DNA of 64,000 nucleotides from Euglena gracilis (lineage: Eukaryota): NCBI GenBank assembly GCA_039621445.1, contig CP154954.1, positions 18,524,642 through 18,588,641 on the forward strand, given 5' to 3'. The notes beneath the pieces are model-generated. The model saw only the letters and a program-made list of their open reading frames with translations. It searched no databases and was not told the DNA's origin. This document shows positions 502 to 48,640 of this stretch, piece after piece. A program made the translations under genes and the position numbers. Each line of letters opens with the position of its first letter. The stretch's first letter is position 1.

Positions 502-968
502 CAGGGTTTGATATGAGGACAGGTGGGGGGGGGGTCCGGACCCCCCTGCGGGCCGGGAGGGGGGGGGGGGGGGGGGGGTGGGGGGGACACCCCCCCACCT
601 AAACAGTGGCGCGGTCCGGGTGACCGCGCCACTGACCGAATTTCGGACCAGGGACCGAATTTCGGCCCGGCGCTTTGCGCCGGGCCGGAAATTTTTGACC
701 CCCCCAAAACGACACAAAGTGCAATTTTGGGCACTTTTTGGTGCTAAAATTTGCCAAAATGAAAAAAAAAATTCGGCGCAAAGCGCCGGAGGAAAAAAAT
801 GACCCTTTTGGGGGGGGGCCGGTCCCCCCCCCCCCAGGGTTCAACCCGACCCCCCTGGGAAGGGGGGGGGGGTGGGCCGGGCCCCCCCCCCGCAGGCCAG
901 GAGGGGGGGGGGGGTGGGGGGTACACCCCCCACCTAAACCATGTACGCCCTCCTTTTATCAAACCCTG
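502..968. mobile_element. hAT-like MITE family A
   Basis: TIR CAGGGTTTGATA...TATCAAACCCTG; exact 8-bp TSD CTCACAAC (494-501, 969-976). Confidence 0.9.
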
Positions 969-1740
969 CTCACAACCCCACCCCACAACCCAACCCAACC
1001 CCCCCCCGGGGGTCAAAAGTGCCCCCCCCCTGGCCTGCCCACATCACCCCCCGGGGGAGGGTCGGGCGAACTTCCCTTTGCCTGGCCCTGACTCCCCCCG
1101 GGAGGGAGAAAAAGCCTACCTGCAAGGAGGGGGAAACTGTCCAGCATTCGGTTGCCAGGCATTTAAATTTTCGCAGTTTTGGATTTGTCTCGTTTCCTAT
1201 GCATTCTTTTGAAGTGCTGGTTTTTCGTACCCGTTTTTATGCAGTTTGCTCCTTCTGCTGCCAGTTCAGGAAACCTCTCCCCCCCCCTGCCAAAAACAGC
1301 CTGCCTGGGAGGCCTTAATCGCGGAGGTGGAAGGGGGCAGCTCAGGGAAAGCAGGCTTCTTTAAAAGAGTGCATCATGAGTGTGCTATGGACAGGTAGGC
1401 AGGAGAAGGACCATCGGATGCGCTATGGACGGGCTCGCATTTTCGGTGTCATATTTTCCGCCATAGCATTCTCATCAAAACAACAATGTCCCCGGCCCCA
1501 TCGGCTCATGCCCCGGAATGGCTTGGCTGCAGAATGGGGAACTGTTGGACCTTGACCAGCCCAAAAATTACTCAAAAGGTTGCACAACATTGCGAAGGAA
1601 AAGACATATCCCAGCCCCCCCCCCACCTCCCCCCAACGAACTGCAGTGGCACACTGATAGTCGTTGTTACTGTCCCATTGAGGCATGCTACGCCAGGGGG
1701 GGGGGGGCAATACAATGCAGTGTCAGGCCCTTGGCCTCGG

Positions 1741-4700
1741 TCAAGAGGTCAGCCAGACCCAGGGATGTGTGAGAAGCCCAGAGGAGGGGGGGGGGGTCAG
1801 ACCAACCTTCAAACGCAGGAAGGGGGCGGGGGGGGGGGGGGGCCTCCCCATTCGACAAGGAAATTGTTTCGGCTGGCTTGTCCGACTGCTTTGAGTTCCT
1901 GAAAACAACCGCTCATTCCAATGCTTTCCACACCACATTTTCCATTGAAATATCAATATCCCCAATCAGGGTGTTCCTTAACGACCTTGGGGGGGGGGGT
2001 TCAGCTCAGAGGCTAGAAAATTTGAACTGGCTGGACACCCCTCCCCATGGGTTCGGGGCTAGAACTAGACCAGGCTCCTTTTGAAGACCCCTGGAGTGGG
2101 TAGACAAAAAAATCACAAAATGTGCGTTCAAAATGAAAGAATGCAAGGCACGTGGAAAAACACGAGCATGTCCCGCTTTGCATGTAAAAAGATGCATTTA
2201 TAGGGGGTTTTTTTTGACATCTCCAGCACACAGGGTCCCAAAGAAAACTTGCAGCTGGTCTTCCCAATATCCGGGGGTCTGAACCAACCCCCACCTTGCC
2301 CTCCGAGAAGGGGAGTCAGGAACACGTTCTGGCATCCCTGGCTGGACAACACGCTGCGGACCGTCGCAGGCGTCCTCTGGCCCAGCCAGGAAATCGAAGG
2401 TGGGGTGGGGCCAGAATCAACTGACCACAAATAAACCCCTCCATGGAGGGCTTTTGATGTGGCAAACAGGGCGTTGTTTAATGGCCCCCCTCCCAGGGGG
2501 GTCCAACTCAGAGGCTGTAAAATTTGGGCGGCTGGAAAAAGGTTGCTGGCTGACTCCCCCCCCCTCCCAGCTGGCTCTGCGAGGGTCGAAAATCAAACTC
2601 GCCTGCCCCCTTTCCCAATCTAAAAATTACACAAACAGAGGCGTTACTCCTTCTATTGCAAAACTAAGTGGTCCACGCCCCCTCCCGGGACAATATTTTC
2701 TCCTGGACTGAGCAACCAACCCCAATTGCTCCCCGACTCCGAATGCAGCCATTGCTTTTGATTCCAGGCACCACCCCTCCCCCCTCTTGCCCCCCCGTCT
2801 GCTCCCTGCCCTCCAGCGATGTCTACGCACACCCGTGGTCATCCCCACCGCTCGCACGTCCCCGACCAGCGACCGTTCCGGCTGTGGGCCCAGTCGGGAA
2901 AAATAAACCACTTGGAGGGTGGGAGTTGGGTCCCCGCATCCAAAAGAGCTTTCTTTGTTGGCTGGCAGGTGTTTTCTTTTAATTCCGCCCCCCGACAAAA
3001 AGCAATGTAAAAATGGCTGTGGCTTTCCCTACCCCGCCCCCCCCCTGGGGCCCGCCAGTTTACCCCTATGAAGGAGCACGAAAATACAAAAAAGCAAACA
3101 CCATCCAAAATGGGCTGTTAGCCAACTTTTTTTAAGCTTTGTGGGGATGTTGCAAAAACCATTTGTTCTGCTTGGCCTGTCTTTTCCCTCCTTTTTTTAT
3201 TGCACTTTGCGCCCGAAATAATTCCCCACTATGAGCGCACGGGGACCGTATAGCTTCAGTTGAAAAGGCGCTCATTGGGGTTCGTGGTAGTCCTTCTGCA
3301 ACCTGATCAGGTTGTGGCTAAAGATCCCGCCTGGCGTGCACCACTGAGGTTGGGTAGGCGTCCCATCCCTCTGCCGGTGATTCTGACCAGCCCCGTATCC
3401 CAGGGTGACGACCCCCGCGCATAGCTGGTTGGGTCCCTCCGTTCGTGGGGCCAGCCCAGCCAATTGCCGCTATCCCCCCTGATGGACCCCCCGTTCAGTG
3501 CCAGTGTTAACTTTCTTTCATTTCCAGAGAGGCGTGCTGAACAACCCCGGTTGCCATTTTAAACGCGTTGTGCGTTCCCGTGCCCCCACCCTCCCGACAC
3601 TTTTCCTCGGGGTGGTCCTCCGGACTCTGCCCCCCCCACCTTAGTTGCACAAGGTGCTTCTGTCTGTTTTAAACCGGCGCCAACTCGCTTTGGCCCCCTT
3701 GCCTGTGGTGGTGAGTGGCCAGGGACCCCTTACAACCCAGTGGCTTTTGTTGGTCCCCGCTGGCCAGGTGAGCTACACTGTGGTGTAATTTTCCAGCGCT
3801 GTAGAGTGAGGGGACATACACTCACCTTGTGGTTGGGGTGCGTTCCCGTGGGTAGAGATGTCTCACCCCCCCCGGGAGGGGGGTCCGACCGAAGGAAAAG
3901 TCGGGGGGCCCAGGGCCACAGCTGGCTGGGGCCAAAGGATCGTTGGTGCGAACGCGCCCTCGAGAGATCCAAGAGAACCCCCCAAAGCAAAACCGTGGGG
4001 CCGTGGGGGGGGGCGCCTGTGTCGAATGGGGCCAGAGCACCTCCGAAGGAATACTGGGTTGTGTGCACCGTGGGGCACGCCTCCGTCGGCCCGGGGAGAG
4101 TCGGCAGGCCCCGCGGGCCCGCGTGAAGCGGGTGTGCGGCAGAAGTCACACGGGGCACCTGAAACAAGAAATGCCGGGGCAGGGGGGGGGGGCTCGTTGT
4201 GGCGACCTTCCCACTTCTGAACCGTGGAAAGGAAATAACAAGGAAGCTGAGCCTGAGGGAGGTGTGGTCGGATGGTCCAATGGGCCAAACATGAGAAACC
4301 CAAACGGCGGAGAGGTGAATCCTTACTGGACAAAGGGGCGATGGGCTTTTTTGGCTCGTTGAGGGGTGTCCCGCCACATCTTGGAAGAACGCCGGCATGG
4401 CGGGCGTGTTGGACCTGGCTTGGAGATGGGGGCCGGCGGGCCACGACCTAGTCGAACATATCTATCAGGGCCGCCTGAGCCTGAGGGGGTCGAGGGCTGA
4501 GGCTGAGAGTGGAGACGGCTGGGACGTTTGGGGACTGGCGGGGCCGGCCAGGTCAACGGCCATAAACCTCACCTTAGTGATGCCGGGGGGGGGCGGGGAG
4601 CTAGTGGCCAAGTGGGGGTTTGGCGGTCGGTCATCCCACCCCCACCCCACCAAATCCACCCAACCTCCTCCAAAAAAAAAAAGCGGGCAAAATCCAGGCC

Positions 4701-6518
4701 CAACAACCTGGAGACATTCTTCTTGGCCCAGCCTCGGCCTTCGTGAGTGCCGGCTAACCATTGAGACTCACCACTCTCTGGCGGGGGGGGGGTCCCAAAC
4801 CCATCCTCTATGGCGCATCGGCACCGGGTCCGGAAACTCAGGGATCTGGGGCGGACTTCGGGGCACGGGGGGACACGGTGAAGTGAGAAGGTGGATTATG
4901 GCCACCACACAGAAGTCCAAAGGAAGACGGAAATCCCCGCAGAGAGAGGCGCGGGAACACACACCCGTGGCGGGGAGTCCCACCCCAAGTGTTGACCCAG
5001 GAGTGTCGCAGGGTGAACAGGGCGGCGAATCTACCAGCCGGGTGTGCCCTATCAGTATGTCAACCCAGGGTGTGCGGTGTAGTGCCGGCGAGTGTTGTGG
5101 ACGGGTGAAGCTTTTGGGAGTTGGTGTTTGGTGGTGTGTTGGTGTGTGTGTGTCGTGGTGGTTGGGTGTGTTGTGTGTGTGTGTGTGGGTGTGTGTGTGT
5201 GTGGTGTTTGTGTTGTGGTGTTGTGGTGCTTTGTGTGTGTGTGTGTGTTGTGTGGGAGTGTGTGTGTGGTGTGTGTGTGAGTGTGGTGTGGTGGTGTTGT
5301 GTGTGTTGTGTGTGTGTGTGTGGGTGTGGGCTGTGTGTGGTGTGGGTGTGTGCTGTGCGTGTGCTGTGTGCCGGTGGTGCGTTGCGTGTGTGGTGTGCTG
5401 TGTGCCGTGCGCTGGTGCCGTGTGGCGTGGTGCGTGTGAGCTGTGGGTGCGTGCGTGTGGTGGGCGTGTGCGTGTGCTTGTGCTGTGCGTGTGCTGTGGT
5501 GTTGTGCGTGTGCGTGTGCGTTGTGCGTGTGCGTTGTGCGTGTGCTGTGTGTGGTGTGCGTGGTCGGTGGCGTGTGTGCGTGTGGTGTGCGTGGAGTGGT
5601 GTTGCGTGTGCGTGTGCGTGTGCGTGTGCGTGTGCGTGTGCGTGTGCTGTGTGCGTGGTGCGTGTGGTGCGTGTGCGTGTGGTGTGCGTGTGCGTGTGGT
5701 GGTGGTGTCGAGTGGCGTGGCGGTGGTGTGCGTGTGCGTGTGCGTGGTGCGTGTGTGTTGCGTGCGTGGTGTGCGTGGGCGCGTGCGTGCGTGTGTCGGT
5801 GCTGCGTGTGCGCGTGTGTGCGTGCGTGGGGTGTCGTTGCGTGTGCGGTGCGTGGGGTGGTTGGGGGTGCGTGTGCGGCGTGTGCGCGTGTGTGCGTGTG
5901 CGTGTGCGTGTGCGTTGTGCGTGTGCGTTGTGGTGTGCGTGTGCGTGTGGTGTGCGTGTGAGTGGGCGTGTGAGTGTGCGTGTGCGTGTGCGTGTGAGTG
6001 TGGGTGCGTGGTGAGTGTGCGTGTGAGTGTGTGTTGGGCGTGTGAGTGTGCGTGTGCGTTTGAGTGGTGAGTGTGTGGTGTGCGGTGTGAGTGTGGTGTG
6101 AGTGTGAGGTGGTGTGAGTGAGCGTGTGGTGTGAGTGTGAGTGTGGGGGGGTGTGTGGGTGTGTGTGTGTTTGGTGTGGTGTGTGTGTTGTGTGTGTGTG
6201 TGTGTTGTGTGTGTGAAGGTTGGGTGTGTGTGTGTGTGGGTGGTGTGTGGTGTGTGTGGGTGTTGTGTTGTGTTGTGTTGTGTGTGTGTGTGGTGTGTGT
6301 GTGTGGTGTGTTGTGTTGTGTGTGGTTTGTGTTGTGTGGGTGTGGTGTTGTGTGTGTGTGTGGTGTGTGTGTGTGTGTGTGCGCCGCGAGGCGCGCGTGC
6401 GTGCGTGCGTGCGTGCGTGCGTGGGGGCGTGCGTGCGTTGAGTGCGTGAGTGCGTGAGTGCGTGCGTGCGTGCGTGAGTGCGTGCGGTGCGTGCGTGCGT
6501 GCGTGCGTGCGTGCGTGG

Positions 6519-6558
<40 letters not shown>

Positions 6559-9500
6559 TGGTGCGTGGGTGGGTGGGTGGGTGGGTGGGTGGGTGGGTGG
6601 GTGGGGGGGTTTGGTGGGGGGGTGTGTTGTGACGTGTGGTGAATGTGTCTGGATGCCCCCCCGGGTGCGTGCAGTGTGGGCAGGTCTGGTTGGGTGTCAG
6701 GGGTTGCCACTGGTAACTTGGCATTATGTGGAAGGGTTTGACGTCCAGGGGGTGGGGGGCAAGAGCAAGGTGGGGGATGGTAAATGACAACGGACCGACT
6801 GTTGCGGACTACTCCATTTTTGGAACTGTGTTCCTCGCCGGGTTTCCTCGTAAAGAGGACGGTCCTTAAGCAAAACAAATTTGCGTTCTGGGACATTCAA
6901 TCCCAAATCCACCGGAAAATCTTCAAAAAAAGGCCATTTTTGGCAAAAACAGACTGACAGAGGGGGTGGGGATCTGGCATCCTTGAACCATATCCTGTCC
7001 ACCCAAAGCAAGGAAAAAAATGCATTTTCAACTTTTTGAATTTGGCTCCATTCGACACCTGGACCAGCCGCTGGTTGGTCCTCGGGCATGAGGGCGGTCC
7101 TTAAAGGGCGGCGATCCTTTACAAAAAAAAGGACCGCCCTGCTCGTCAGGGGTGGTGGTTTATCGCTGTTGTTTTGATGATGCCAGGGTGGAAGGAGGGA
7201 ATTTTATTTTACGGAAATGTTTCTCCCATAAAATTACCCTCCCCCAGAAGTTGACAAGTCAGCAAGTACGCGCTTAGGAGACAATGTCCCAATTCCCAAG
7301 GACAAGGGAAGCTACAAACTAAGGTTCGTTTCAGGAAACGTCTAGGCTTTTTTTTGGGTGGGTCTTATTTTGAAACATTTTTGACCAATGACAAGAAAAA
7401 AAACTGTCGTTTTTGTCATTTTTGTCATTTTTGGTTCCCAAAGGCAGGTGTAAGTTGGTATAGGTTGAGATTTTGCAAACTCCAAAAATATTTCTTCACA
7501 AAGGTTATGTTAATGACCATCCTGAAAAAAAAACATTTTGACCAATTTTGACAGAATTTGTCAAAAATAGAAAAATTTGAGGTATTATGGGAAAATTTGG
7601 AGTCAGGTGTTGACCAACAAATTTATGACACATCGGCCTGCCAACGAAAGCAGATCCTTTCGGAACCCAAGGGACTCTTAGTGAGTGCCTCCAAACGGAG
7701 AAGGAAAGGGCCACGCGGCGACGTGGGGGGACGGCAGGGGAGGTTCAGGCACGCCGCGTCTGGATCGGTTGGGCGGCGGAACGAGGCTGGCCGGGCTGAC
7801 GCCCACCCCCAACACCGAACCCACCTCTCGGCCACGGCGTGAGGGTTGGACGCCCGCTGCCGAAACGGCCCCGCCCCTGATGGAGGTATTCCAGGCAGGC
7901 TGAATTGAACCAACCTGGGGGGTCGGAGCACCCTGGAGTTCCTAGGCAGGCAGGTCCACCCCGGGGTGTAATACCTCCCCAGGAAGTGACTGGGTGACTG
8001 TGGGGGGGGGGGGATCGGTGACTGGTAAAAAAAAGGACCACAAAATGGGCTTTTTCTGGGGTTCCAGCGCTGAAGACACCAAAGGTGCCTGAGCCCAGTG
8101 CCCACAGGCACTTTTGGCCGTGCCCTATTACCAACTGGGGGGGGGGCTGCTTGGGCAGACAGGAACTCCACAACACCCAGACGACCAAACATTCATTTAG
8201 TGTGGTTCACGACGTGTGAACCACAAAAAAAAATTTGGTGTCCACAGGTAACGAACGCAGGAGACTTGCCTTGTGAAAACATTCGGGCAGCGACCACTGG
8301 CCATTGTCTTCCCGCTTTTTTCACTTTGTCCAGCATGATGGCCCGTGCTGTGGCAAGCTGCCATGCCACCCCAAAGTGGTCCCTGGAGGCGTTTGCAAAA
8401 AACTTGATCACCACCGGGGCATGTTTCGAGCCATAGCACAAGGCACCCCATTGGACTTCTGCAGCTCAAGCAGTCAAGCAGCACGAAGTTTTTTGCTGGG
8501 CCATCCACAAAACGGTCCCAAACAAAATCCTTGCCTGGGGAATCACTGCGGGCGAAAGGGGGATCAAAGAAACAGACAGAGCTGAATCCGCCTGTGCCAA
8601 CATGGTTTGTGCACAAATATGATATGCTCCATTCTCATGTGTTCCGACAGTGCGAGTCCTGTATTGAGTAGTTGGCATCGCAAGCACATTCCTTTTTTCC
8701 CAGCAACTGAAACCTTTGGATGCTGCCGAAAATAGATGACAAATCGAACACCACACTCCAATCTTTGGATCATAATTCAACAAATCTCAGTTATTTGGCC
8801 ATGTGGGTCAAAACTTATGCCGATTTCTTTTTCGATGTGGTAAAGAGATTTTGTTTTTCTTTGGAGAAGGGGAGTCTCCAGATGAGCTGGAAGAGCAACC
8901 GAGTGGGGACTTAAAGGCTGCACTCTCCGCTTTCTCCGGCTCCTCCCAAGGACGCCGTTGGGCAAACAATGTTCAAAGAAGCTTGCTTCATTGCTGTTGA
9001 GGAGAAAGATAATAATGCAAATGCCAGCAGGTGGTGGAAAAAAATTCGTGTCTACCTGTGAACCACAAATATTTTTTGTGTCCACGGGTGAATTACGAAA
9101 AAATTTGGTCCACAAAATTTTGGGGGTGTACCAAAAGGTGTCCATACGTGAACCACAAAAAAATTTTGGTGTCCACAGTGAACCACAAAATGACACCCTT
9201 GGTGTACCACACTAAATGAATGTCTGGACCCACACCCCCGAAAATAATAAAACTGGAACTGATAATAAAAAAACAGCTGATAACAAAAAACGCAGAAGGA
9301 TCAATTAATTTCAAGAACCGAACCGCAGCTCATGAAGCACCACACTGACACAATAAACTCTTACCTTGCAATCCTCTCACACATCAGCCTCCATCAAGAG
9401 CATTCCCTCCTCCCTTTGAATGCCAATAAGGTCCCGGACCATTGCTTGAGTGTGGTGGGCTTGCAAGACGGAGAGCGGGAGCAGGCCAGAGGGGGTGGTG

Positions 9501-10058
9501 TGTCCAACCGATGCGATGGGGGGGGGGGGGGCAACAGTGAGAAAGAGTAAATCCGTATCGAAATCACGGTCACGTGTATTCCAGCACCATAGATCAGGTG
9601 TTTTTGAATCACTTTCGAATTTTTTTGAATCACGGCAGGGGCACCCGCACCATAGAAGCAGCCATCCAATACAAGCACACTGGAAACATTGATCAAATCA
9701 ACCTTGCCGGCCCAACAACCTGAGGCGGCAATCTACCCATGCTTTGGGTGCAGGGAGGGGAATGGTTCCAAGATGGGTGGGTCAGGGGCTCAAAATGTTC
9801 GTTGGGAGAAGGGAACACTTCCCTAACCTGAGGTGGTTTCCACCCCAGGTTACCCCACCACCCCTTCCCGGGGGGTGGGAAGGCCTGGTGGTGGGGGGGT
9901 GGGGGTTCGACCCCCCCACCACCACCCAGGTCCCAGAGGGGAGGAGATGCCTGGCCCTATGGCCTGGGAGCGGTCCGGGCTGCTTCGGAGCCGTGCAGCT
10001 GCAGCCACAGGTCGGACTTGCCGGGGAGCTGCTGCATGAGGCTGAACGGTGTGGCCAT
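1741..10058 (-). CDS. Unknown Pro/Ser-rich protein gene, paralog B (exons approx. 10058-9963, 9487-9431, ~7900-7700, ~4560-4333, 4158-3825, 2420-2344, 1754-1741)
   Basis: MATPFSLMQQLPGKSDLWLQLHGSEAARTAPR starts 26 nt after ccccccacag; GT-AG borders around 4158-3825; ends ...PQRVVRLTS*. It has a 1-nt indel versus paralog A in the 2420-2344 exon. Confidence 0.55.
1755..2343 (-). other. Nonconventional intron, 589 nt, present only in paralog B
   Basis: C|AGC CAGGGATG ... CATCCCTG GGTCT|G. Removing it gives a gap-free match to the uninterrupted exon at 40580-40610. Confidence 0.8.
5121..6603. repeat. Compound (GT)n/(GTGTGC)n/(GCGT)n/(GGGT)n microsatellite
   Basis: Directly visible. Confidence 0.95.
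7934..8170. mobile_element. MITE (TGGAGTTCCT...AGGAACTCCA)
   Basis: 10-bp TIR; degenerate 8-bp TSD GAGCACCC/CAACACCC. Confidence 0.6.
8189..9223. mobile_element. Non-autonomous DNA transposon, ~1 kb
   Basis: 18-bp perfect TIR ACATTCATTTAGTGTGGT; subterminal GTGAACCACAAA/TGTCCAC repeats; no clear TSD. Confidence 0.7.
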
Positions 10059-12428
10059 GTTGGGCGAGGGCAAGCCGGAGAACCCTGTGGGGGGGGGGGG
10101 GATGGGGCAGCCTACTACATACCAGACCACACATCCTTTACCGACCCCGGGGGCTCACTTCCACCCTTCCCAATCAGTCACTGGTGGGGGCCACTCCCAC
10201 AAACGCAGAAAAAAAAGAACGGCCAAAAGAATCGGCTCCTTTGGCGCCAGGTCACTTTAGTTGTTTTTTTTGCCAAGGAGGAGGGGGTTTAGGGAACTTC
10301 AGCCTTTTGGGGGGCTTCGAAGATCCTGCATTTCCATCAACTGCAGTCAAACATCAATTCCACAGAAAAGTATTTTGTGTGCCTCCTAGCTTCCCTTGAA
10401 ATGTGCACACTTCACCTGAAATGCATGATTTCTTATGAAAAATGTCCCAATTTCTTTCATGTTTTGTCCTGAGGTGGTGCTCAGAGGCGGCTGTGCACTC
10501 GAGCATCAAAATCAGACGTGTGGCTTATCTCATTCCTTGGTCCTTTTGGTTTGAATCTTTCCTGATCCACTGAATGATTTCTGTGACTTTTTTCTCCCAA
10601 AATGTTCAGGAGCGGTGCTTTTAAAGAGGTCCAGGAAAATTTCCAGCTCTGTGGCCAGTCAAAAGGCTGGATACCAAGTCAAAGTTGTTGGGAAATCCCT
10701 GAAATTCTTTGAAAATCCAAAGATGCTCAGTTTAAATAAGTCCCACCAAAAAAAAAAGGCCCAGGCCTTATTCTTGTGCCCATTGCTGGAAACTTCCAGG
10801 AGGGGGGGGAGGGTATTTTGGGGAGTTATTTTTTGGATTCTTTCTTGATCGACCTAGGCCCGAAAAAAAACATCATTTTCCAGGTTCCTAAAATACCAAA
10901 ACTCTATCTTTGGACCTTTGCGTCATTTGTAAATTGGCACCATTTGACATTTACCATGGTGTTTTGCGACTGAAAAATTCTTAAGGTTTGGGAAATCACA
11001 TCTGTCTGAAATTGAGGATTTAGGTAAATTTTCAGGGAAAACTTTCACCGTCTCAGGCACCAGGGGACCTGGAAGGGGGGGGGGGCTCTTATTTTGGGGG
11101 GTTCATTTGGGGGGGGGGGGGACCTCAACCCCAAAGGCCCAGCACACCATGGCCATCGAAGCCCATCACACGCACGCCACAGGGTCAGGGGCAGCATCGC
11201 TGTGAGGCGGTGCGTCGGAAGCTGTACCCGACTGGCGGGCCGACTCGTACGACGGGGTGGAGGGGCACGGAGGGGGGGCAGAGACCACCTTGTCTGGGCG
11301 GTAGCCATCCGGTGGGCGGGACCTTCCACCTCTTCTCAGCCCAGCACCAACTCAGTTTCTCCCCTTTGCCCGAATCGCACCTACCCCAAGCAACATCCCC
11401 CACCCAGGGACCCGACTTTCAACATGTTATCCATTCTTTCACTGACCGCCGCAGAGAAAACGAGTTATCCTAAGAACAGGAACCATATTTTTTGTGCAAA
11501 TGTTATGCGGTTTGCACCGTGTTGCACGTTTCTGAGACAAAAAACTGCACCTGCCATGGATTTTAATACCTCCCCCCTCCTGGGGCGCTTGGCCCGGGCC
11601 AAGCTCGAACCAAAGCGAAGGTAAGGCCCATGGTTGCCAAGTTTCATTGTTAAGAAGTTTGGCGGCCATGAAGAATGAAGGCCAACTTTGCAGCTTTGGG
11701 GAGCCAAGTTTGCATGTAAGGAGGAGGGGGGCCAAGCGCCGGGGGGCGGGGGAGGTGGAGGAACTGTTCAAGATAGATGCAACACATTCCGTGACCAAAG
11801 TTTTGCATCCAAAACAAACAGACAAAATGCTTTGCCAAATAATACCCCCTCCCAGATGGGGGTATCATCATCCCTTGGCAGAGGGGGAATATCATTTGGG
11901 GGCTTATTTTTTTCAATAAAATTAGATGGTCACGGTTTGGGTACGTACACATCCAAATACACATATGCACCAATATACACCACCTCAAAACCACTTCAAC
12001 CACTCGACCACCCGACCACCTCAAAACGGCAGCGGACGAGGGCTGTCAACTGTGGCCTCGCAGCAGTCCCCAGAAGGTCGCTCCCCAGAAGAGGCCAGCC
12101 CCAACCCAAAGCACCCCGTTCCACTTGGTGCAAAGAGGCTGGAGGAAGGGAGGACGACGTGGGGTGCCGCAGGGCGGAGGCCAGGGTACAGTCCCGAGGG
12201 GGAAGACCCGGTACAAATATGCAGGTTGCTGGATATGGGGATGGTGGGCGTCAGTGGTGCCGAGCCATGAGGGCCCAGAAACCTGCTTCATTTCAGTGCA
12301 AAGCCATTCACAAGTTTGCACAAAGGCATGGGATGGACGCATTTTGACAGGACCACGGGTTTTTTTAGGACCCCCCAGAAAAAAAGGTGCCGGGCGAACA
12401 CCCCCCCCCAGGGGTGGTGGGTCCAGGG

Positions 12429-12819
12429 CAGGGTTCGATATAAGGACAGGTGGGGGGGGGGTCCGGACCCCCTGCGGGCCAGGAGGGGGGGGGGGGGTGG
12501 GGGGGACACCCCCCCCCACCTAAACAGTGGCGCGGTCAGGGTGACCGAAAATTTTTGACCCCCCAAAACGACCAAAAGTGCCATTTTGGGCACTTTTTGG
12601 GCAAAAATTTGCCAGAAATGCAAAAAAAATTATCGGCGCAAAGCGCCAGAGGAAAAAGTTGACCCTTTTGGGGGGGGGGGTCCCGGGTACCCCCTCAGGG
12701 TCGGTCCGGACCCCCCGGGCAGGTGGGGGGGGGGGGGGTCCGGACCCCCCCCAGCGGGCCAGGAGGGGGGGGGGACACCCCCACCTAAACCATGTACGCC
12801 CTCCTTATATCAAACCCTG
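12429..12819. mobile_element. hAT-like MITE family A
   Basis: Same TIRs; 8-bp TSD GTCCAGGG. Confidence 0.9.
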
Positions 12820-13249
12820 GTCCAGGGGGGGGGGAGGTGCGACCGGCTGGGAGCTGGAGCCGGCGGGTACCCAAAAAAGGCCCAAATTCAGTAGGGTTGC
12901 CATTTGTCAGCCAAAATTTGGAGGTGAAAACCCAACAACCACCAAAAAAATGCCATTTTTGATAATTTTTGACCCCTTTTTCAAAAACTTTCAGTACTTT
13001 GCACCGAAAATTTTTTCGGTCTAGCCTGGCTTTGCTGGGCTGGCCCGGACGTTATTTCAGCAGACCCCTGGGGGCAGCCAGTAGGGAGGTGCTGGCTGGA
13101 AAAAAAAGGTGCTGGGTGGCTGCCCTCCCCCCGGGGGGGGGAAGGATCCCCTCAGGCTTGGGAAAAATCCTGGACGCACGACTCTGTCGTTTGCAGGTAG
13201 AGCCCTGAGCTTGTGGGGACACGCTCGTCGCTTTTCTTCCGGCCACATG

Positions 13250-13500
13250 TATGTGTAAACATACATGTATACATGTATGCTTTTATGTGTATCCATGTGC
13301 AAAAACATGTAATCATTTATATGCATATACCAAAAAAAAAAAACGTGTGCATTTTTATGTATATGAATGGGATATATACATATATACCATATATATAGAT
13401 ATATATATATATATATATCCCATATATAGATATATATATAGATATAATACATACATATGTATGCATTGCAATATTGTATTGCAATGCATACATATGTATA
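13250..13500. repeat. (AT)n-rich tract with a 23-bp-arm hairpin at 13451-13499; duplicate ~19565-19820
   Basis: ATACATATGTATGCATTGCAATA-ttg-TATTGCAATGCATACATATGTAT. Confidence 0.85.
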
Positions 13501-15239
13501 TGAACTGCACCGCCTAAGCACTGCTTCGGTTTCGGTGCAGGTAGCCGAAACTTCTCACCTCTCTTCAGACAGATGGGTTGGAGGCTGCCCAGATTTTCTC
13601 ACACTTCGCACGAGTTTCCGGCAGTGTTGCTAAATTGACCCCACCACTGGTCAGGTCAGAGTCAAGCCACCACTGGGGAAAATGGCACACGTGGAGCTGA
13701 GCAGACAGAGGCACTGGTTGTCCAGAGACGCTGTTCATTGGGAGGGAGGGCGGTCGTACGAGGAAGCAGAAGCAGAAGTTCCAAGATGGGAAGGGGAAAA
13801 CCCTGCGGAACTGGTGTGGAACAACGGCGCCAAAAACGTGACGTTGGTACAAAAATGTGACGTTGGCACAAAAGGCAGATGCCCGATCACACCAGCTCCC
13901 AAAGCATCGAGGCAAAACTGAGTGCAAATGGAATATCGGCTCTAACTTCCATGGCAAAAAGTTTTCAATGATGACGGCCTTTGCTCGTCACTTTTTCCAA
14001 TGGACACCATCAAAAAAAAAAAACGTACCGCTCGGCCACAGGGCCACAGGGGGAAACAGAATGGGTGTTGTAACAGTTGCAAAGTCTGTAGGGCACCCAA
14101 ATACTCAGCGTAAAGGATTCTGGCCCATGCGTTGAACGGGGTTCAACCTTCTTTTCAAGACCTCTCAAAACTCCCACTCATTTTTGGATGTTTTCCACAA
14201 AAGCCCACCTAAGTTGTAAATCATCTTGGGTTTCAACTCAATTTTTAAGAAGGACAATTGCAGGTGACCCAACAAAAATCAAGACCATAAAAAAGGAGCT
14301 GGTAAAAACTGTCAAAAAATATTACATGTCCAAAAGACAACTGACTGCCTTTTTGGGGCCAATTTCCAGCACTGCACGCCGCAAATGTTTGGCTGGACCC
14401 CAGTTGGAGGCTCCACCCCAGACCTGGAGGGGTCATGTAGGTGTTCAGTGAGTCTATGGTCTTGACTAAGGTGTGACTGAAACCAGGACAAAACATAATA
14501 CTTGGAACTTTCCTCGGACATGGCAGAGATTCAGCAGTATGGCTCATGCTTGTGTTTACCGACCGGGGGGGAGGGGGGTGGGTGGGTGCTCTAGGGTGCC
14601 TGCCCCTAGCAGGCACCCCCCCCCTGGGGGGGTCTGGGGGGACCCAGATTCCATTGAAAATGGCCTTTTCCGGGCCCCCGGCGCCTTTGGCGCCAGGGTC
14701 GGAGGGGGGTGCCTGCTATGGGCAGGCACCCCCCAAATTCCTACCCCCCCCCGGGGGTCGGATGGGGTGCTATGGGGTGCCTGCCCCTAGCACCCCCCCC
14801 CCCCGTGGGGTAGGCACCTGACTAAGCACAAGCCTGGTATGGCTGCACCAAACGTGCTGCATGGGACTGAGAGACGTCGAAGTGGATTCTTGGCACTTTC
14901 CACCGGAGAGGTCTGTTGAAACGGTTTTTGACAGAAAAGTCTCGTGGTTGACAAAAAAATGGATTCAAAAAGTTATCAGGTTTTATTTAAAAAAAAAACA
15001 TGAACCAACGTTTCCCGGTTCGATTTCGGACAGGACCGTTACACAAGCGTGCCACAGGCGTGCTATGGAAACCTTCGTAAGCCCCTACCAGCGCCAGTCC
15101 CCCTCCCCCGAGTCAAAGGTCTCCCGAAGTGACACATATGCAATGCAGTTTTCAAGGTCGGTCTCGAACTTGCCCCCCCATGCGATTCGATCTTGTCCCA
15201 GGCATGATCGAAGAGCCAACCGGGGTTAAAATTTGATTT

Positions 15240-16140
15240 TAGGAATTACTGGCGGGCCATGTGCAGCATTGGCTAAAAAGCATAAAAGTGGGAGGGGAGG
15301 TCACAAGTTGAGGTCAAAGTCCAAACCCCGGGGGCCAACTTTGCATGTAAGGAGGAGGGGGGCAAGTGTGTGGGCGTGGGCGGGTGGGTGCTGGTGAGTG
15401 GGTGTTGGGGTGGGTAGGTGTATTCACTTCCCTTTCTTTCCTTTAGAAGAAACCAGTGCATACCAATGGTGGTTTCGGTTGTGATTGTGGTTGTGGCTGT
15501 TGTGGTTGTTATTTTGGTTGTTGTCGTTATGGTTGTGATTGTTGTTGTGGTTGTGGTTTTGGTTGCCGTTGTTGTTGTTGTTGTTATGGTTGTGGTTGCG
15601 GTTGTTGTTGTTGCTGCTGCTGCTGCTGCTGGTGCTGTTGTTGTTGTTGTTGTTGCGTGATTATCTCCACAAAGATGCCACAAAGATTGCAAAGCAACAA
15701 GGGGGTGCTTGAAATACCCCGCGCACTCTTGGCAGACAGACTGCAGCACTCAAACTGTGGACTGAACAAGCAATCCAAATATCAATTTCACTTTTCAAAG
15801 TGTACAAACGGCTGGAGAAAAATCATCCAGAATCCCGCACTGGAGACCAGGCACGTGAGGCGCAAGGCAGGGGAAACCACCACGTCAAAAATTGTGTGTT
15901 TCAACGACAGATTTAACACTCCCGTGTTACGTGCACGCAGGCCTCCCCATATGCTCATGTCTGAGTTACGATGCCATAGGGAGTACCCCCTGTGGGGGCC
16001 CTTGCCCCCAGATCTTGCCCCCCTCCTCCTTACATGCAAAGTTGGCCCCCTGAGTTTGGACTTTGGCCTCAACTTGTGACCTTCCCTTCCACTTTTAGGC
16101 TTTTTAGCCAACGTTGCGCATGGCCCGCCGGAAATTATCA
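15240..16140. mobile_element. Long-TIR (~125 bp) foldback element enclosing a (GTT)n/(GCT)n tract; duplicate at ~21560-22460
   Basis: 15240-15365 is the reverse complement of 16014-16140 (GGCGGGCCATG...AACTTTGCATGTAAGGAGGAGGGGG). Confidence 0.7.
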
Positions 16141-38831: not shown

Positions 38832-40233
38832 CAGAGAAGGGTAAACCCGATAAGGTACACATGCTGCAACAGTCCAGGCAGCCATTGCTCAAAGAGGGAA
38901 AACAAAGCAAATACAGGCGGCCTGTACAATTTGCAGCACCTGTGGTGGGGGCACAAAAACGGCTAACAGACAAACAGCTGTTACGAGCAGGGGCGTTGGT
39001 GGAATGGGGCAACGTAGTACCATGTGTCATAAAGCACGTGAGTGTGTGCCTGCATTGAGATCTGAGACTATGCCATCGGTGGGGCGCCAACCCGGAACAG
39101 AAGGCACAGTTTAGGGGACAGTTTAGGGCATTTGCAGTGTTCATCCGACCCTCAGCTTCAGTTTGCCGAGGTCGAACACGTTGGGAGACCAACTAACAAG
39201 ACAGTAACAGCAGGGGGGGGGACTCTGCTGTTCAAACACATTCAACTGAAAATGCACATTAAAAATGGTGGGAAGAGGCATAATGAAAGAGAAAATGAAA
39301 CAGAAAAAACGAAAAAAATCCACATTTCTCGGAAGGAAAAACAGGTCCACATGAGGAGGAAAATTGGTCTTAATTAATTTGGGTTAAAACGTCCCTGCCT
39401 GCCTTTTCCCAACAAATGGACCAGGATCTGAACCTTGGAACTTGGATATTCAGCCGAATGTGGTGCATCCTGATTCTGATTTACAAAGATTTCCAGGGTG
39501 TGTTCTAGTGATTCTCCTCAGTCCCCAAGGGTGTCTTATGCCTAACGAAAGCTTGTTCACATTTCGTCAAAAAGTGGACGCTGGGGTGAGCCTCGGTGCT
39601 TCTTTTTGTTTACTGCAACTCCCCTGCGCTTTGTTTGCGCTTCACCTTGGTGCACACGGGATTCAAAAGAGGGTCGGTGTAAACGGTTTTTTTCTTTCTT
39701 TCTCCGGGGTCGGCAAATGGGGGAGTCAATAGATATAAATGGATTTCTTCTCATTTTTCCGGGGAGGTCGGAATACATGGAGTCAGTGTCGGGAGTCAAT
39801 GAATACAATGGGGGGTCGGTCCAAATGGGGGGACCATGGGAATAGTAAGGGGAGGGGAGAGCTTGTCCTCCTCCTACTGTTCCCCCCCTTACTGTTCCCA
39901 TGGACCCAAAAGGGGGCCATAGGATGGGAACAGTAAGGGGGGTCATGGCATAGGTCGGGCCGACCTGGTCAGCTTGACCTGTTTGTGGGGGGGGGGGGGT
40001 TAGGGCTTCCCAGGGTCATGACACCAAAAGCCACCCGAGGAGCAGTCAAAAAAATTTTGGTGTTCGGTCGACACTGGCTGACCGAACCGTGCAAAACCAT
40101 CATTGCAAAGGTGAAGGCATGCCAATGCCACCCACAGACAGCACAGATGGCACAGGGAGGTGCTGGCTACCCGACGGAGCGAGGCACGCACCGGGGGAGG
40201 GGGAGAAGGCGCAGTGCAATGCAGTGTCAGGAC

Positions 40234-40559
40234 CACACCAGTGCTTACCGACCCCTTGGTGGGGGGTTACTTTCCACTTTCAAAAAACAATCAGTTAGTT
40301 TTCAAAAACCAGTCATCCACTTCCTACCACCCCAGGGAGGTCGGTCCCCCTGGCCACTGAGGCCAAAAAAATGGCCAAAAATCAGCGGATTTCGGCTTAA
40401 AAAAATCCCAACATGATTTCGTCCAGTTCCTGCCAACCTCATTCTCTGGGGGGGGGGGGGTCCAGGAGCCCCCGAGCCAAAAAAAAAAGTCTTTCACTCT
40501 GGAAAAAAAACAAATCAGTCACCGAGGGGAGGGTCGAACACGTCTTCAGCAACGGTATG
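40234..40559. mobile_element. MITE with 8-bp TSD in the 3' UTR of paralog A
   Basis: TSD GTCAGGAC; imperfect TIR CACACCAGTGCT/AGCAACGGTATG; empty site in paralog B at ~1715-1740. Confidence 0.8.
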
Positions 40560-40579
40560 GTCAGGACCCTTGGCCTCGA

Positions 40580-43500
40580 TCATGAGGTCAGCCGCACCAC
40601 ACACTGCGGGCTGTCGGAAGCGGCCCTTCGGCCCAGCAGGGCACTCGGGGGTGGGGGGCCAGCAGGACCTCTCAAGCGGGTGCCACTACAGGGTTGGTTT
40701 CCTCCAGGCCTGTTCTTTTTTTTTAAAAAAAATGTAATTATTCGCCTTAAAAAAATGATCCTGCCCCAGGGGTGGCGCCGGCCTCCCCTTAAAATCAGCC
40801 CAGTGCCCCCCCCCCACCGATTGGATTTGGGTTTCTCAAAGCGCCTACCCGGGGAGGCACCCCATGAGTGGGGTCGGCAACGCCTTAACATTCAGTGGTG
40901 GGGATGCAGTCAATGAATTGGAGATCACTACGCTGTACCTCGTGTCTCATGCCCTGAGACAGTCAGTAGGCATGTGGACATGGGCGAAGCAATAATAACC
41001 TCAAAACGTGAGACATTTGTTGACATGATTTTACCAACGACTGTGGTATAATAATTTGGCACCCCTTGGGGTTCAAAACTACGTCTGTAAAACAGTTTAA
41101 GAGTTTTAAAAATGGGTAAAAGCAAACAAAGGCACACCAAAAGCGATCAAAGAAGACCAAAAGTGACCAAGAAAGCGGCCGAAAGTGGCCAAAAAGCAAA
41201 CAAAATAACCCAAAACAGGCCAAAAGCAGCCAAAATGGCCAAAAACGGCCCAAAGTTGTCAAAAGCCGCAAAAAATTGCTGAAATTATCTGTTTTTGGAC
41301 ACTTTGGCCGCTACTTTTGACCACAGTTCTATCCTCCGGTACTTTGTCCACTCCAGTACTGCGTCCACTCCCATACCGCGTCCACTTCAGTACCGCGTCC
41401 ACTCCATTACTGCATCCACTCCAGTACTGCGTCCACTCTGGTACTACGTCCACTCAGTACTATATCCACTCCAGTAATGTGTCCACTCCAGTACTGCGTC
41501 CACTCCAGTACCGCGTCCACTCCAGTATTGCGTCCACTCCAATACTGCATCCACTCCAGTACCAGTACCGCATCCACTCCAATACTGCATCCACTCCAGT
41601 ACTACGTCCACTCCAGTACTGCGTCCACTCCAGTGCCGCGTCCACTCCAGTACTGCGTCCACTCCAGTACAGCGTCCACTCCAGTACCAGTACTGCATCC
41701 ACTCCAATACTGCGTCCACTCCAGTACTACATCCACTCCAGTACTGTGTCCACTCCAGTACCGCGTCCACTCCAGTACAGCGTCCACTCCAGTACAGTGT
41801 CCACTCCAGTACTGCGTCCACTCCAGTACTGCGTCCACTCCAGTACTGTGTCCACCCCAGTACAGTGTCCACTCCAGTACTGTGTCCACTCTAGTACTGC
41901 ATCCACTTAGGCGGCCGGATTCGCACTTAAGCTTTTTTCCTTTGGATGCGCGCAATTGCGCAAATGCACCATTTTTTTGTAACCCCTGGGACCCTGTACC
42001 CTGACACCCAGAACACGATTTAAGAACCGTTACACCCATCTATTGGAGGGGATTAACTCCCAGTGGTCTGGTGTGCATGCTGCTTACCGGGTGACGTTAA
42101 TAGGGCTGGGGGTGAGACTGGTGCTGTTGTACATCAAACGGGAGAGAGGCACACACCCCTTGTAACGACACTTGGAAACGGTGCTGACGTGCTGGCTGAA
42201 CTGGCTTGGACACTGCCGCCACCGGTGAGAACACACGGGGCCTCATGACATCACACCACCACAGACACACAGACTACGTGAGGCAGCCGTCACGCAATTG
42301 ATGTGTGTTTATGGGCGCAATTGCGCAAATAAAAACAATTGTGTTTATGGGCGCATTTGCGCAAATAAAACGTACACCGATGATGATAAAATGACGTGTT
42401 GGTGGGCGCAAATGCGCCTACAAACAAATTTGTTGGTGCGCACATTTGCGCAAATGTGCACACCAACATGTACTTTTACTTTCTATGTTAAAAGACACCA
42501 AAGAGGACCATGACCCTACGAGGTTTTAAAACGTGATAGGGGTGTTGGTGCGCGCAATTGCGCAAATAAACACAATTACGTTTGTGCGCGCATTTGCGCA
42601 AATGCGCGCACAAACATTTTATACACCGCTTCAAAATGATGTGTTTCAGAGAGCCTTGACGCACACAAACAAAGTTGTGTTTATTTGCGCAAATGCGCGC
42701 ACCAACACACATCAGTTGTGCGATACCATCTCCTCCTCCGTGACAGCTGGCGAACGCAATTCCTCACGTCAACCATTGATTTGTACCACGATTACATGCT
42801 GATGAAATTTGTGGTGAGAGGTGGTGTGGAGTGTTCACTGGAACACGGCATTTGACTGGCCAAAATTTGCCTGTCTCACGTGTGTACATTTGTACTGCTG
42901 TTACCAGGCCCACACGACCTGTTGTTTTGGCGTCATCCGTTTGGCAGTTAAACGTAATGAATTGATGACATGCAAACGACCTGTGACTGTTGGACACCTT
43001 TTCTGCAACAGGACTGCGTTACAAGAAGACAAAATTTGGCACCTGAAATACCCGGGACGTGTTGGGCCGGAGTCCGTTTTTTTTCTTTGCCATTTTTCCC
43101 TCGAAAAACGTAAAAAATACCGGTTTTTGTGCATATTTTGGGGGGAGTGGGTCCCACAGCTTTGATGCACCCAATCCAGGGGTAAAGGTTCAACACTTCC
43201 TTGCATCCAAAGGAACGGGTGCTTGAGGGCTACCTCTCTTCGGCTGCTGGTTGCCATGCACTGGCACCACGTCATACCCCCAGTCTTACACCCCGGTTGC
43301 GGGGTATAACGTGGCCGCTGTGGTGGGTGTCGTTGCACCGGGGAAGTGGATGCTGACCTGTTGGGTGCTGAAGCATCAGCAGCTGATGGGGCTTTAACAG
43401 CGGAGCCCAGGCCGCAGGTCAGCGGCAGGGCCCTTGGGACCCAAAAATTGGTGCCGGTGGAGGTGTACCGTTACTGGGTGGCTATGCAACCACCTTCAAG

Positions 43501-46500: not shown

Positions 46501-48640
46501 AGCATTGCAGCCTCTTTGTTCCTGAGGGGGAGTGTTCAGATGAATTGACCTTTTTTGTTTCTTTTTCAGCTCATTCACAACCCCTCCATCAGAGCTTAAC
46601 CACACACCCTCTGCCGCCCAAAAGCTCACCCCCCCCAGGTTTGCAAGAAATCCTCCAAATACAAGCAACCCCTGACTGGATTTTCATTCAAATGGCAGAA
46701 AAAAGCTATGTTTCAAAATATAAGCAACCCCTTACAAGGATAGATATTGGTATTGGGTTTAGGAGGGGTCCCAATAAATTGGATAGACTGACCCCCGACA
46801 TCCTCGATGAAAATCGATAAAACAGATATGATCACTTTGTACCCCGATACGATACGATACCCTCATTTTTGTGATTTCGAGAATCCCAAAATCGCCCAAA
46901 AAAAGTGCATCACCCCCCCCCAAATAAAGCCGATATTCCACGATTATTTCATTTTTTTTTATTTTTTCGGGACCCGATAAATTCCAGATCGTCAATAAGG
47001 CCGATATGAACTGATATCCAATGTCCATCCTTGCCCCTTGAGCCCACTTTGGAAACCCAATGAAAAAGCAACTGATTGCTCCCATTCGGGGGGTCACCTT
47101 TTGATGGCAGCAGTGTCCCCGACCACTGCTTGAATGTGGTGAGCCCGCAAGACCGAGAGCGGGAGCAGGCCTCAAGGTTCTACCATCGAGGTCCTTCAGA
47201 ACTGCAATTTTATTTATTTATTTTAAATTGTGCGTTAAACTCTGATAACCTTATTTGATTGCTGGATTTCTGTGGTTCGACTTTCAAATTCGAAATTTTT
47301 CCAGCTTTCCTCCAATTTTATTATTCCATTTTCGCGTCTGGTATCTTGCCTTCATCGAATTCCCCAGCACAGTGTGCCAAAAGATCTTTTAAATCTTTCC
47401 CAACGAAAGGGTGCACATTGCAAATGAGCGATGGGTGCAGAGGTTTTTTAGGACCGTGGAGTCCAGACCGACCCACCCACCCACTCTCTGCAGGCCCCCC
47501 CTGGGGGGCCAGGAGACCCACTTTTGGGGGGTCAATTCTGCAGTCCAAAAAATTTTCCAGTGTTTCGCACTGAAAATAGAGGAAAACCCTGCCTCCGGCG
47601 GGGTTCCCACTCAGCCTGACCCCGGGGGGGGGGAGGGGGGGGGGGGGCTCGGTACACTCACCCAACCCCCCCACTGGGTCATGAAACTTTTAAAAAAAAT
47701 CTCTGGATAGGTGGCTTGTCCACACCGCTGCCCCTGGCACAACCCCCCCCCCAAAGTTTATGAAGATGATCCTATCTCATGGAGGAGGGCTCGAATTTGA
47801 GGAACTCCAAGCAGGCATTATTTGAGAGGTGCCACAAGAACCTCTAAACAAAACCTTTAAAACCACAAAAAAATGGCTCAAATTGCCTTAAAAAACCTTT
47901 AGAAAAAAAAAGTTAAGAAAACTTAAATTTTTCGTATTTTTCGAATTTTGAGCAAAAAAGAAGTCGCAAAACCTCGAAAAAAAAAACATTTCCAGCATCG
48001 CTGAAACATAGTCTATCCACCCAAAACTCAAAAAATGGGTTTTTGGACTTTTTGATTTTCAACTTGGACCGACGCTGGTTCGATGCCAGCCCCTTCCGAA
48101 ATCAATGAAATATTTGCTGAGGTTGAAGCTGATACATCCCACAAGGGATTTCTTGGGCAGGAGAGAAACCAACCTCCAGGGGGGGATCCAGCCAGCCAGC
48201 ATCATTTCTTCTGGTCAGCTCCTGCTAGCTGCGCTGGACCTTGACAAAAAATTGGCGCCTTGAAAATTTATAAAATGCCTTTAAAAAAATTTAAAAAATC
48301 TTTCAAAAACACATTAAAAAAGCTTTGAAAAAAATGATCTTTTTTAAGCGCTTTTTTTGCCTGAAACAATTTACCTGATCCCCACCCTTTTCAACTTTGC
48401 CTTAAGCTGGGCGAGGTTGGTATTGGTTCTGAGGTCAGCAGTATGGTGCGTAGGGGAGCAAAAAAAAAGTCGGGGTTGGGGGTGTGCTTGGGTATCCCGT
48501 GTTTTCGGGTCCCACGTCCCTGGTCGTAGGAGCCTGCCCTGTGGCCTGGGGGCGGTCCGGGCCGCGTCAGAGCCGCGCCGCTGCAGCCACAGGTCGGACT
48601 TGCCGGGGAGCTGCTGCATGAGGCTGAACGGCGCGGCCAT
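40580..48640 (-). CDS. Unknown Pro/Ser-rich protein gene, paralog A (exons approx. 48640-48545, 47171-47115, ~46400-46290, ~45940-45715, ~45490-45400, 40668-40580); internal exons approximate, possibly decaying
   Basis: ATG lies 21 nt after a C-rich cag acceptor; MAAPFSLMQQLPGKSDLWLQRRGSDAARTAPR. Colinear blocks are homologous to 10058-1741. The last exon ...SPQCVVRLTS* differs from the paralog mostly at third codon positions. Confidence 0.55.
41345..45029. repeat. 17-bp satellite TCCACTCCAGTACTGCG (41345-41907 and 44865-45029), split by a transposon
   Basis: Contiguous degenerate units. Confidence 0.9.
41908..44862. mobile_element. ~2.95-kb DNA transposon inserted into the 17-bp satellite; a diverged relative lies at ~61662-62529
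   Basis: Perfect 32-bp TIR TAGGCGGCCGGATTCGCACTTAAGCTTTTTTC; many GCGCAATTGCGC/ATTTGCGCAAAT motifs; the satellite continues on both sides. Confidence 0.85.
45952..46054. repeat. (GGTGTA)n microsatellite
   Basis: Directly visible. Confidence 0.9.
46735..47033. mobile_element. MITE (CAAGGATAGATATTGG...CCAATGTCCATCCTTG)
   Basis: Imperfect 16-bp TIR; CCCCTT direct repeat in the flanks. Confidence 0.55.
47438..47705. mobile_element. hAT-like MITE (CAGAGGTTTTTT...AAAAAATCTCTG); a relative lies at ~57320-57590
   Basis: TSD GATGGGTG/GATAGGTG (7/8). Confidence 0.78.

Follow-up and report, generated by a model that had tools for sequence, protein, structure and literature searches.

Nonconventional introns of euglenids are an established intron class, and many of their properties are already in print: the class itself and its code, with CAG and CTG at positions +4..+6 and -8..-6 and pyrimidine/purine (Y/R) borders, as well as junction repeats that resemble target-site duplications (TSDs), a recent intraspecific gain associated with an 8-nt repeat, and the hypothesis of an origin from MITEs (miniature inverted-repeat transposable elements) (PMC4770533, PMC3935182, PMC11282704, PMC12501133). 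According to knock-in tests in Euglena gracilis described by Nomura et al. 2025 (PMC12501133), the code consists of exactly 3 nt before CAG, and of CTG followed by 5 (or 6) nt, together with a following exon that opens with a purine and pairing that extends beyond the triplets. It is written there as 5'-N3CDG...CH'GN5-6/R (here and below, a slash marks a border), and a CTG/CAG variant is reported to be spliceable as well. Release of the introns as full-length circular RNA has also been described (PMC11282704, PMC12501133). One recently gained nonconventional intron, flanked by 8-nt direct repeats, is intron 4 of gapC in Euglena agilis ACOI 323 (Milanowski et al. 2016, PMC4770533). A MITE-like origin was put forward by Milanowski et al. 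2014 (PMC3935182) and is treated in a review (PMC11282704). By the account of the 2014 paper, transposable elements had at that time yet to be identified in euglenids, and a passage of PMC12501133 calls the origin of these introns unclear and the MITE origin a hypothesis. Here we describe a candidate nonconventional intron, i7, in a 64,000-nt stretch of Euglena gracilis DNA (assembly GCA_039621445.1, contig CP154954.1, positions 18,524,642 to 18,588,641; hereafter the window, to which all coordinates refer). It interrupts one copy of a tandem gene pair, copy B, and is missing from the other, copy A. We read i7 as a stem-defined nonconventional intron of copy B that most likely arose by insertion of an element after the A/B duplication, and we assign this reading a probability of roughly 0.55.

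On the minus strand, copy B reads ...CCGCAGCGTGTTGTCC / AGCCAGGGATG...589 nt (1755-2343)...CATCCCTGGGTCT / GGCTGACCTCTTGA, whereas the counterpart in copy A (minus strand, 40610-40580) is the continuous sequence CCGCAGTGTGTGGTGCGGCTGACCTCATGA. The insert opens with AGC-CAGGGATG and closes with CATCCCTG-GGTCT. Its ends form a perfect 9-bp terminal stem (CCAGGGATG with CATCCCTGG), both borders are pyrimidine/purine (C/A and T/G), and the 8-mers outside the CAG...CTG core, TGTCCAGC and GGTCTGGC, are identical at 5 of 8 positions. A previous sequence-only reading of the window had already reported an uninterrupted copy A at 40580-40610, a 589-nt interruption in copy B, the AGC start and GGTCT end, Y/R borders and a perfect stem of 8-9 bp. 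This anatomy was confirmed on the window sequence, which places the insert exactly at 1755-2343 and sets the stem at 9 bp. The features concerned are the following.

1755..2343, minus strand: candidate nonconventional intron i7 (copy B only), 589 nt, 5' end AGC-CAG..., 3' end ...CTG-GGTCT; contigs of the DNA run X2 lie over both borders.

2333..2341, minus strand: 5' arm of the terminal stem, CCAGGGATG, including CAG at intron +4 to +6; paired in the minimum free energy (MFE) and centroid folds.

1759..1767, minus strand: 3' arm of the terminal stem, CATCCCTGG, including CTG at intron -8 to -6; paired in the folds.

2344..2371, minus strand: exon piece e7a of copy B, GCCTGCGACGGTCCGCAGCGTGTTGTCC, 28 nt between introns i6 and i7, encoding ACDGPQRVV and the first base of an Arg codon; its upstream border is predicted from the code.

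1741..1754, minus strand: exon piece e7b of copy B, GG CTG ACC TCT TGA, which completes the Arg codon with its last two bases and continues with Leu, Thr, Ser and the stop (+1741-1743), in agreement with the C-terminus of the transcript protein P0002.

40580..40621, minus strand: last coding exon of copy A, uninterrupted, encoding ASDSPQCVVRLTS and the stop (+40580-40582).

40591..40598, minus strand: empty site GGTGCGGC of copy A; the insertion point of i7 corresponds here to 40593/40594.

The coding strand of copy B runs CAG CGT GTT GTC C / insert / GG CTG ACC TCT TGA. i7 thus splits an Arg codon 11 nt upstream of the TGA, four codons before the stop. Excision of exactly 1755-2343 yields ...GPQRVVRLTS and a stop, which is identical to the last 10 residues of P0002 (ending ...NPYSFDGPQRVVRLTS), and this was the sole success among 10 registers tested. 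Copy A encodes ...SPQCVVRLTS and a stop without interruption. The restoration of the frame is an observation on the sequence as it stands, and it bears out the boundaries that had been proposed for the insert as well as its location within coding sequence. An alternative frame (...ADLLTEAKG...) and the suspicion that the region is non-coding, raised by differences that show no third-position bias, were both overturned by the transcript proteins, the frame of which ends at the TGA at 1741-1743.

The two loci had been taken for paralogs, and this is borne out by conserved exons that lie collinearly, in the same order, on the minus strand, with about 38.6 kb between the copies. The conserved islands are B 9925-10107 and A 48511-48684 (84%), B 9413-9487 and A 47097-47171 (81%), and B 1722-1754 and A 40560-40593 (91%). 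A narrower comparison finds only ~130 nt alike, namely B 1696-1754 and 2346-2414 versus A 40200-40231 and 40567-40662. In exon 1 the protein of the pair starts with MA(T/A)PFSLMQQLPGKSDLWLQ, and a C-run and CAG stand ahead of the ATG.

9970..10058, minus strand: exon 1 of copy B, ATG at 10058, MATPFSLMQQLPGKSDLWLQLHGSEAARTA; the preceding C-run and CAG resemble a spliced-leader acceptor.

48552..48640, minus strand: exon 1 of copy A, ATG at 48640.

A search of 5.8 billion proteins with exon 1 gave three matches among 32 candidates, all of them Euglena gracilis transcript proteins (EukProt EG_transcript_27631, EG_transcript_19539, which is P0002, and EG_transcript_31777), and none of these has a Pfam domain. 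They are assigned to the Euglena gracilis transcriptome because of their record names. With P0002 as the query, the identical three proteins were found among 258 candidates, and a HMMER profile search of 1.84 billion representatives detected no relatives beyond these three. Judged by their sequences, A and B form a tandem pair of paralogs within an orphan gene family. The family proteins have 145-184 residues, with a conserved N-terminus (39 residues), a conserved C-terminus and a very variable middle. The middle exons of copy A were looked for and not found, because the centre of the family is too variable. P0002 is nearer to B than to A, both in exon 1 (29/30 versus 27/30) and in exon 2 (12/12 versus 9/12). 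Beyond exon 2, its agreement with copy B is 17/21 and then lower, reaching 50% in e6. Since the later exons diverge so much more, P0002 is not the product of copy B. In exon e6 of copy B (4039-4128), two 1-nt differences, located in G and C runs, compensate each other. A metagenome pattern scan yielded 96 loci, but their BLAST matches to the gene ends did not exceed 42 nt (at 76%) and were otherwise 35 nt or shorter, so that they were set aside as chance matches.

The borders of i7 are not of the GT/GC-AG type, the coding strand of the insert beginning with AG and ending with CT. At the 5' end, AGC-CAG places CAG at +4 to +6 after a 3-nt spacer. At the 3' end, CTG-GGTCT provides an N5 spacer, and the downstream exon begins with a purine (G at +1754; minus-strand GGCTGACC). 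Pairing beyond the triplets is present as the 9-bp perfect stem in both the MFE and the centroid fold; these folds, computed for 1735-2375, pair the ends of i7 and extend the helix into the exons. Every sequence feature of the published code is thus found in i7, as the sequence-only reading had suggested in part, and by these features it is very probably an intron of the nonconventional type. The expectation by chance was assessed at every window position, for lengths of 560-619 and on both strands, with the pattern N3-CDG...CH'G-N5/R and a stem of at least 8 bp. Only 8 of 7,609,140 trials passed, about 1 in 10^6, and 2 of the 8 were i7 itself, one per strand. When introns were searched for by the code alone in the 8.5-kb gene, 430 chance candidates were obtained in B and 980 in A (stem of at least 6). 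Code-only intron prediction is therefore useful solely at sites that are fixed by other evidence.

The window also contains elements with ends like those of i7. A scan for X8-CAG...CTG-X8 identified a MITE family (the CAGGGTTYGATA family) with the terminal inverted repeat (TIR) CAGGGTTYGATATAAGGA, the copies of which are 390-467 nt long and 84-95% identical in pairs.

502..968, no strand assigned: MITE copy M1, 467 nt, TIR CAGGGTTTGATA, perfect 8-bp TSD CTCACAAC.

12429-12819, 18748-19137, 23867-24313 and 29934-30325: the other complete MITE copies, identified by the scan and their TSDs.

All five complete copies have CAGGG...CCCTG ends and a perfect 8-bp TSD. Their exact terminal pairing ranges from 7 to 18 bp (18, 12, 7, 7, 7), while the aligned ends share a TIR of ~18 nt. 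M2 and M3 are 95% identical, carry the same TSD and lie within a local duplication. The copies therefore represent four independent insertions, because two of them lie in a segmental duplication. This local tandem duplication comprises about 11986-15495 and 18306-21816 (offset about 6.3 kb), with 13 N at 17752-17764 in between, and an additional MITE copy at 17518-17751 is cut by the N gap. A search for a transposase among 10 long open reading frames found none with a Pfam family. An 8-bp TSD combined with CAG-type ends would point to the hAT superfamily. In the literature collection that was searched, no paper names a MITE family of Euglena that has such ends together with an 8-bp TSD; supplementary data may list such repeats.

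The length of the MITE TSD (8) equals the sum of the spacers in the splicing code (3 + 5). Under the published code, each MITE copy would qualify for removal as a nonconventional intron, and this in nearly either orientation. The sequence-only reading had attributed i7 to a CAGGG...CCCTG element. This attribution gains from the five in-window MITEs, which have just those termini and perfect 8-bp TSDs, but i7 has only the terminal five bases (CAGGG...CCCTG) in common with them and is not a member of this family.

The events that we propose are as follows. In the pre-mRNA, the 9-bp stem formed by CCAGGGATG and CATCCCTGG would bring the two borders together, and cuts would be made in front of the 3 nt that precede CAG and behind the 5 nt that follow CTG, before a purine. 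Joining of ...GTTGTCC to GGCTGACC... would then create the Arg codon CGG and restore the C-terminus ...GPQRVVRLTS with its stop. As for the origin, a short element ending in CAG...CTG would have inserted in the B lineage after the A/B duplication and made an 8-bp TSD. Because 3 + 5 = 8, RNA removal would take away the element plus one duplicate, and the reading frame would therefore have been intact from the start. From the features described above we infer splicing at this locus, and we consider it fairly probable that i7 is spliced in vivo. We likewise infer a direction of change and a transposon origin: on balance we favour a gain of i7 in B over a loss from A, and we see an even chance that i7 was born as a TSD-making CAG...CTG element. 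More tentatively, two ages of insertion might be seen side by side here, a young MITE lineage, mobile now or until recently, with five copies and perfect TSDs, and an old exon insertion with like ends, its TSD reduced to 5/8, that now is a nonconventional intron. If this is true, the 3-nt and 5-nt spacers of the code would be nothing but the 8-bp duplication of the transposon split in two, any such element landing in an exon would be spliceable from birth, and the MITE hypothesis would have its first named source family.

Sequencing reads were aligned to 1000-5000, using one DNA run (X2) and samples of about 5-6% of three RNA-seq runs with the same species label (12.9, 12.9 and 8.3 million reads; joints were listed from 3 reads upwards). 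There are 20 sequencing runs on record that contain part of the window, labelled DNA or with their type guessed, and none of them is listed as RNA. X2 contigs span both junctions of i7 (1724-1842 and 1989-2529), and no X2 contig joining 1754 to 2344 was seen. For this reason the insert is real DNA and not an assembly artefact. The depths of the X2 contigs (44-177) were considered as a measure of copy number, but this was dropped, as it would require the true coverage of the run and as contigs and window match at only 95-99%. The RNA samples placed 71, 39 and 23 reads, of which 71, 38 and 22 were partial fits, most of them on G/C runs (1610-1634 and 1822-1842). RNA depth was zero in the three runs for the bins at 2072-2339 inside i7, and 0.2-1.6 (1-2 reads per bin) in the flanking exon bins, numbers too small to speak for or against splicing.

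Two further introns occupy the same positions in both copies, and copy A has a private insertion of its own.

9477..9969, minus strand: intron i1 of copy B, 493 nt, TCC-CAGGCC...GGCCTG-CTCCC/G.

48551-47161, minus strand: intron i1 of copy A, 1391 nt, at the same position as in B, N3-CAGGCC...GGCCTG-N5/G.

2372..4038, minus strand: intron i6 of copy B, 1667 nt, GCT-CTGGCCC...GGGCCAG-AGGAC/G, the CTG/CAG variant.

45365-40622, minus strand: intron i6 of copy A, 4.7 kb, CCT-TTGGCCC...GGGCCGA-AGGGCC/G, position as in B.

40226..40568, minus strand: private insertion of copy A in the 3' untranslated region (UTR), 12-21 nt past the stop, period 334 nt, with a perfect 9-bp direct repeat GTCAGGACC (+ strand).

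The predicted i1 junction ...ARTA/LSVL... was found in all three transcript proteins (P0001-P0003). As far as the protein sequences tell, the gene family is thus demonstrably processed at sites that the code predicts. The 7-bp terminal stem of i6 closes with a C-G pair in B and a T-A pair in A, both sides having changed, and the lengths of its 3' spacer are 5 nt (B) and 6 nt (A). Because the i6 ends are shared, ~50 nt upstream of the last exon can be aligned while the introns otherwise cannot. The predicted tail of copy B, YSFGGACDGPQRVVRLTS followed by a stop, is four residues longer than that of P0002, and for this reason the borders of i6 stay predictions. At the site of copy A's 3' UTR insertion, copy B is contiguous (1727/1728). 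This insertion was rejected as a nonconventional intron, since CTG stands at both of its ends, giving a T-T mismatch, and a stem is lacking. The private insertions of A and B lie within about 40 nt of each other.

Several repeats were seen in the introns. A 31-nt motif, GGGGGGTYCARCTCAGAGGCT..AAAATTTG, occurs at 1994-2024 within i7 and again at 2496-2526 in intron i6, in bins where the X2 contig depths are about 7,900 and 11,200, and it likely belongs to a very abundant repeat. In the bin 3680-3813 the X2 contig depth is about 66,000, far above that of its neighbours, which suggests that a short repeat of extremely high copy number lies near 3704-3729. Within intron i6 of copy A there is a tandem array at 41340-41900 with a 17-nt unit, CCACTCCAGTACTGCGT, and variants of it; the array yields many false matches to the code because each unit carries CAGTACTG. 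A 1.47-kb degenerate (GT)n-type microsatellite lies in a copy B intron at 5134-6603, and a shorter one is found at the matching place in A (about 45950-46100). RNA reads from two runs that are independent of each other (X21, 6 reads; X24, 4 reads) match the window from 1311 rightwards and continue leftwards into an identical foreign sequence (agreement 1.0 and 0.99) that is absent from the rest of the window. They seem to mark a boundary, by splicing or fusion, of a transcript downstream of copy B.

A number of observations weigh against i7 being an intron gained by insertion. No spliced joint between 1754 and 2344 was listed in the RNA samples, in which coverage of the locus is near zero, and the fold of the whole insert is no stabler than that of shuffled sequences (z = 0.19). 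In BLAST, i7 had no match to M1-M5 or the rest of the window except the 31-nt motif at 2496-2526, nor is there a second copy of i7 within the 64-kb window. The relic 8-bp TSD claimed by the sequence-only reading does show its 5/8 identity, but this repeat was picked by eye and is weak, with a chance probability of about 2-3% (p about 0.03). For background, 27 of 529 CAG...CTG pairs with a stem of at least 7 match at 5/8 or more, the top scorers being mostly true MITEs or the tandem array. The C-terminus of P0002 testifies to a family mRNA that reads across the site, not to removal of the insert of copy B. Lastly, exon e5 of copy B (within 4522-4400, minus strand) reads AALIDMFD-stop-VVA where P0002 has AALIDMFDWVVA, with an in-frame TAG at the place of a Trp codon and no X2 depth at this TAG. 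Copy B may therefore be a pseudogene, unless the TAG is an assembly error. If copy B were dead and untranscribed, the 589 nt could be a mobile-element insertion into a pseudogene that never was an intron, an explanation that we regard as improbable. The TAG would agree with it, and so would the near absence of RNA reads over 1000-5000 in the three sampled runs, small as these samples are. However, the 9-bp perfect stem, the exact 3-nt and 5-nt spacers and the exon-start purine have all been kept, and removal of the insert yields a C-terminus identical to that of an expressed family member; the TAG itself is possibly such an error. It is far less probable still that the likeness to an intron is a coincidence and that the insert is filler DNA from double-strand-break repair or the product of an unrelated rearrangement. 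PMC4770533 proposes that new nonconventional introns with repeats at their junctions may come from such repair, and the private insertion of copy A nearby has its 9-bp direct repeat without a CAG/CTG stem, but the full code with a stem of at least 8 bp would be expected at a given site in only about one of 10^6 cases.

The direction of change needs separate consideration. With two paralogs and no outgroup it is unpolarised, and a precise loss in A fits the same data. In that case i7 would be ancestral to A and B and would have been lost precisely from A, either by recombination with spliced cDNA or by deletion between the 8-bp TSDs. Recombination with cDNA favours the 3'-most introns, and i7 is the 3'-most intron; its loss would leave exactly the uninterrupted sequence of copy A. 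Deletion between intact 8-bp duplicates would likewise be precise. There was also ample time for such a loss, as A and B are old paralogs whose introns can no longer be aligned. Yet A retains the 4.7-kb intron i6 only 28 nt upstream, so that a conversion tract from cDNA must have ended inside the 28-nt piece. Moreover, gains are described as frequent and intron positions as lineage-specific in PMC3935182 and PMC4770533, and the 5/8 repeat together with the fresh MITEs with the same ends fits an insertion, although it does not date it. We consider an ancestral i7 lost from A less likely than the acquisition of i7 by copy B.

In relation to what has been published, i7 is best viewed as a well-formed additional example of a known intron class, and the supplementary datasets of PMC12501133 may possibly list it. 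The locus combines a code-perfect intron four codons from the stop, its absence from a tandem paralog, and intact MITEs with the same ends nearby. Taken alone it is one data point, and its value is that a genome-wide test could start from a concrete locus and an equally concrete candidate family of elements. With the in-window MITEs, i7 has in common a TIR of the form CAGGG...CCCTG, a length in the range of 390-590 nt, no coding capacity found and perhaps an 8-bp flanking repeat (perfect in 5/5 MITEs versus 5/8 positions in i7). They differ in that the terminal pairing of the MITEs is 7-18 bp as compared with the 9-bp stem, only the terminal 5 nt are common, and i7 is single-copy in the window.

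The introners of Micromonas and other algae, as treated in the review PMC11282704, resemble i7 in being short elements with a TIR and a TSD that can be removed from RNA on arrival, in their case since the duplicated target holds or adjoins one of the splice sites. They depend on the spliceosome, on GT-AG-type sites and on 3-nt TSDs, however, whereas i7 has non-GT-AG borders and a terminal stem. The gapC intron 4 (PMC4770533) is likewise present in one and absent from the other of two close relatives and has an 8-nt repeat at its junctions, and its gain has been interpreted as ongoing. Strains of one species are compared in that case, and the direct repeat comprises eight nucleotides; for i7 the comparison concerns old tandem paralogs, the repeat has decayed to 5/8, and gain is no more than the favoured direction. 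i7 also resembles the introns of Nomura et al. 2025 as described in PMC12501133. Their excision was observed, whereas i7 is known from sequence alone and its host copy is possibly inactive, but they have the same 3-nt spacer before CAG, the same CTG with a 5-nt spacer, the same purine at the exon start and the same extended pairing, and they too lie in coding exons with non-GT-AG borders.

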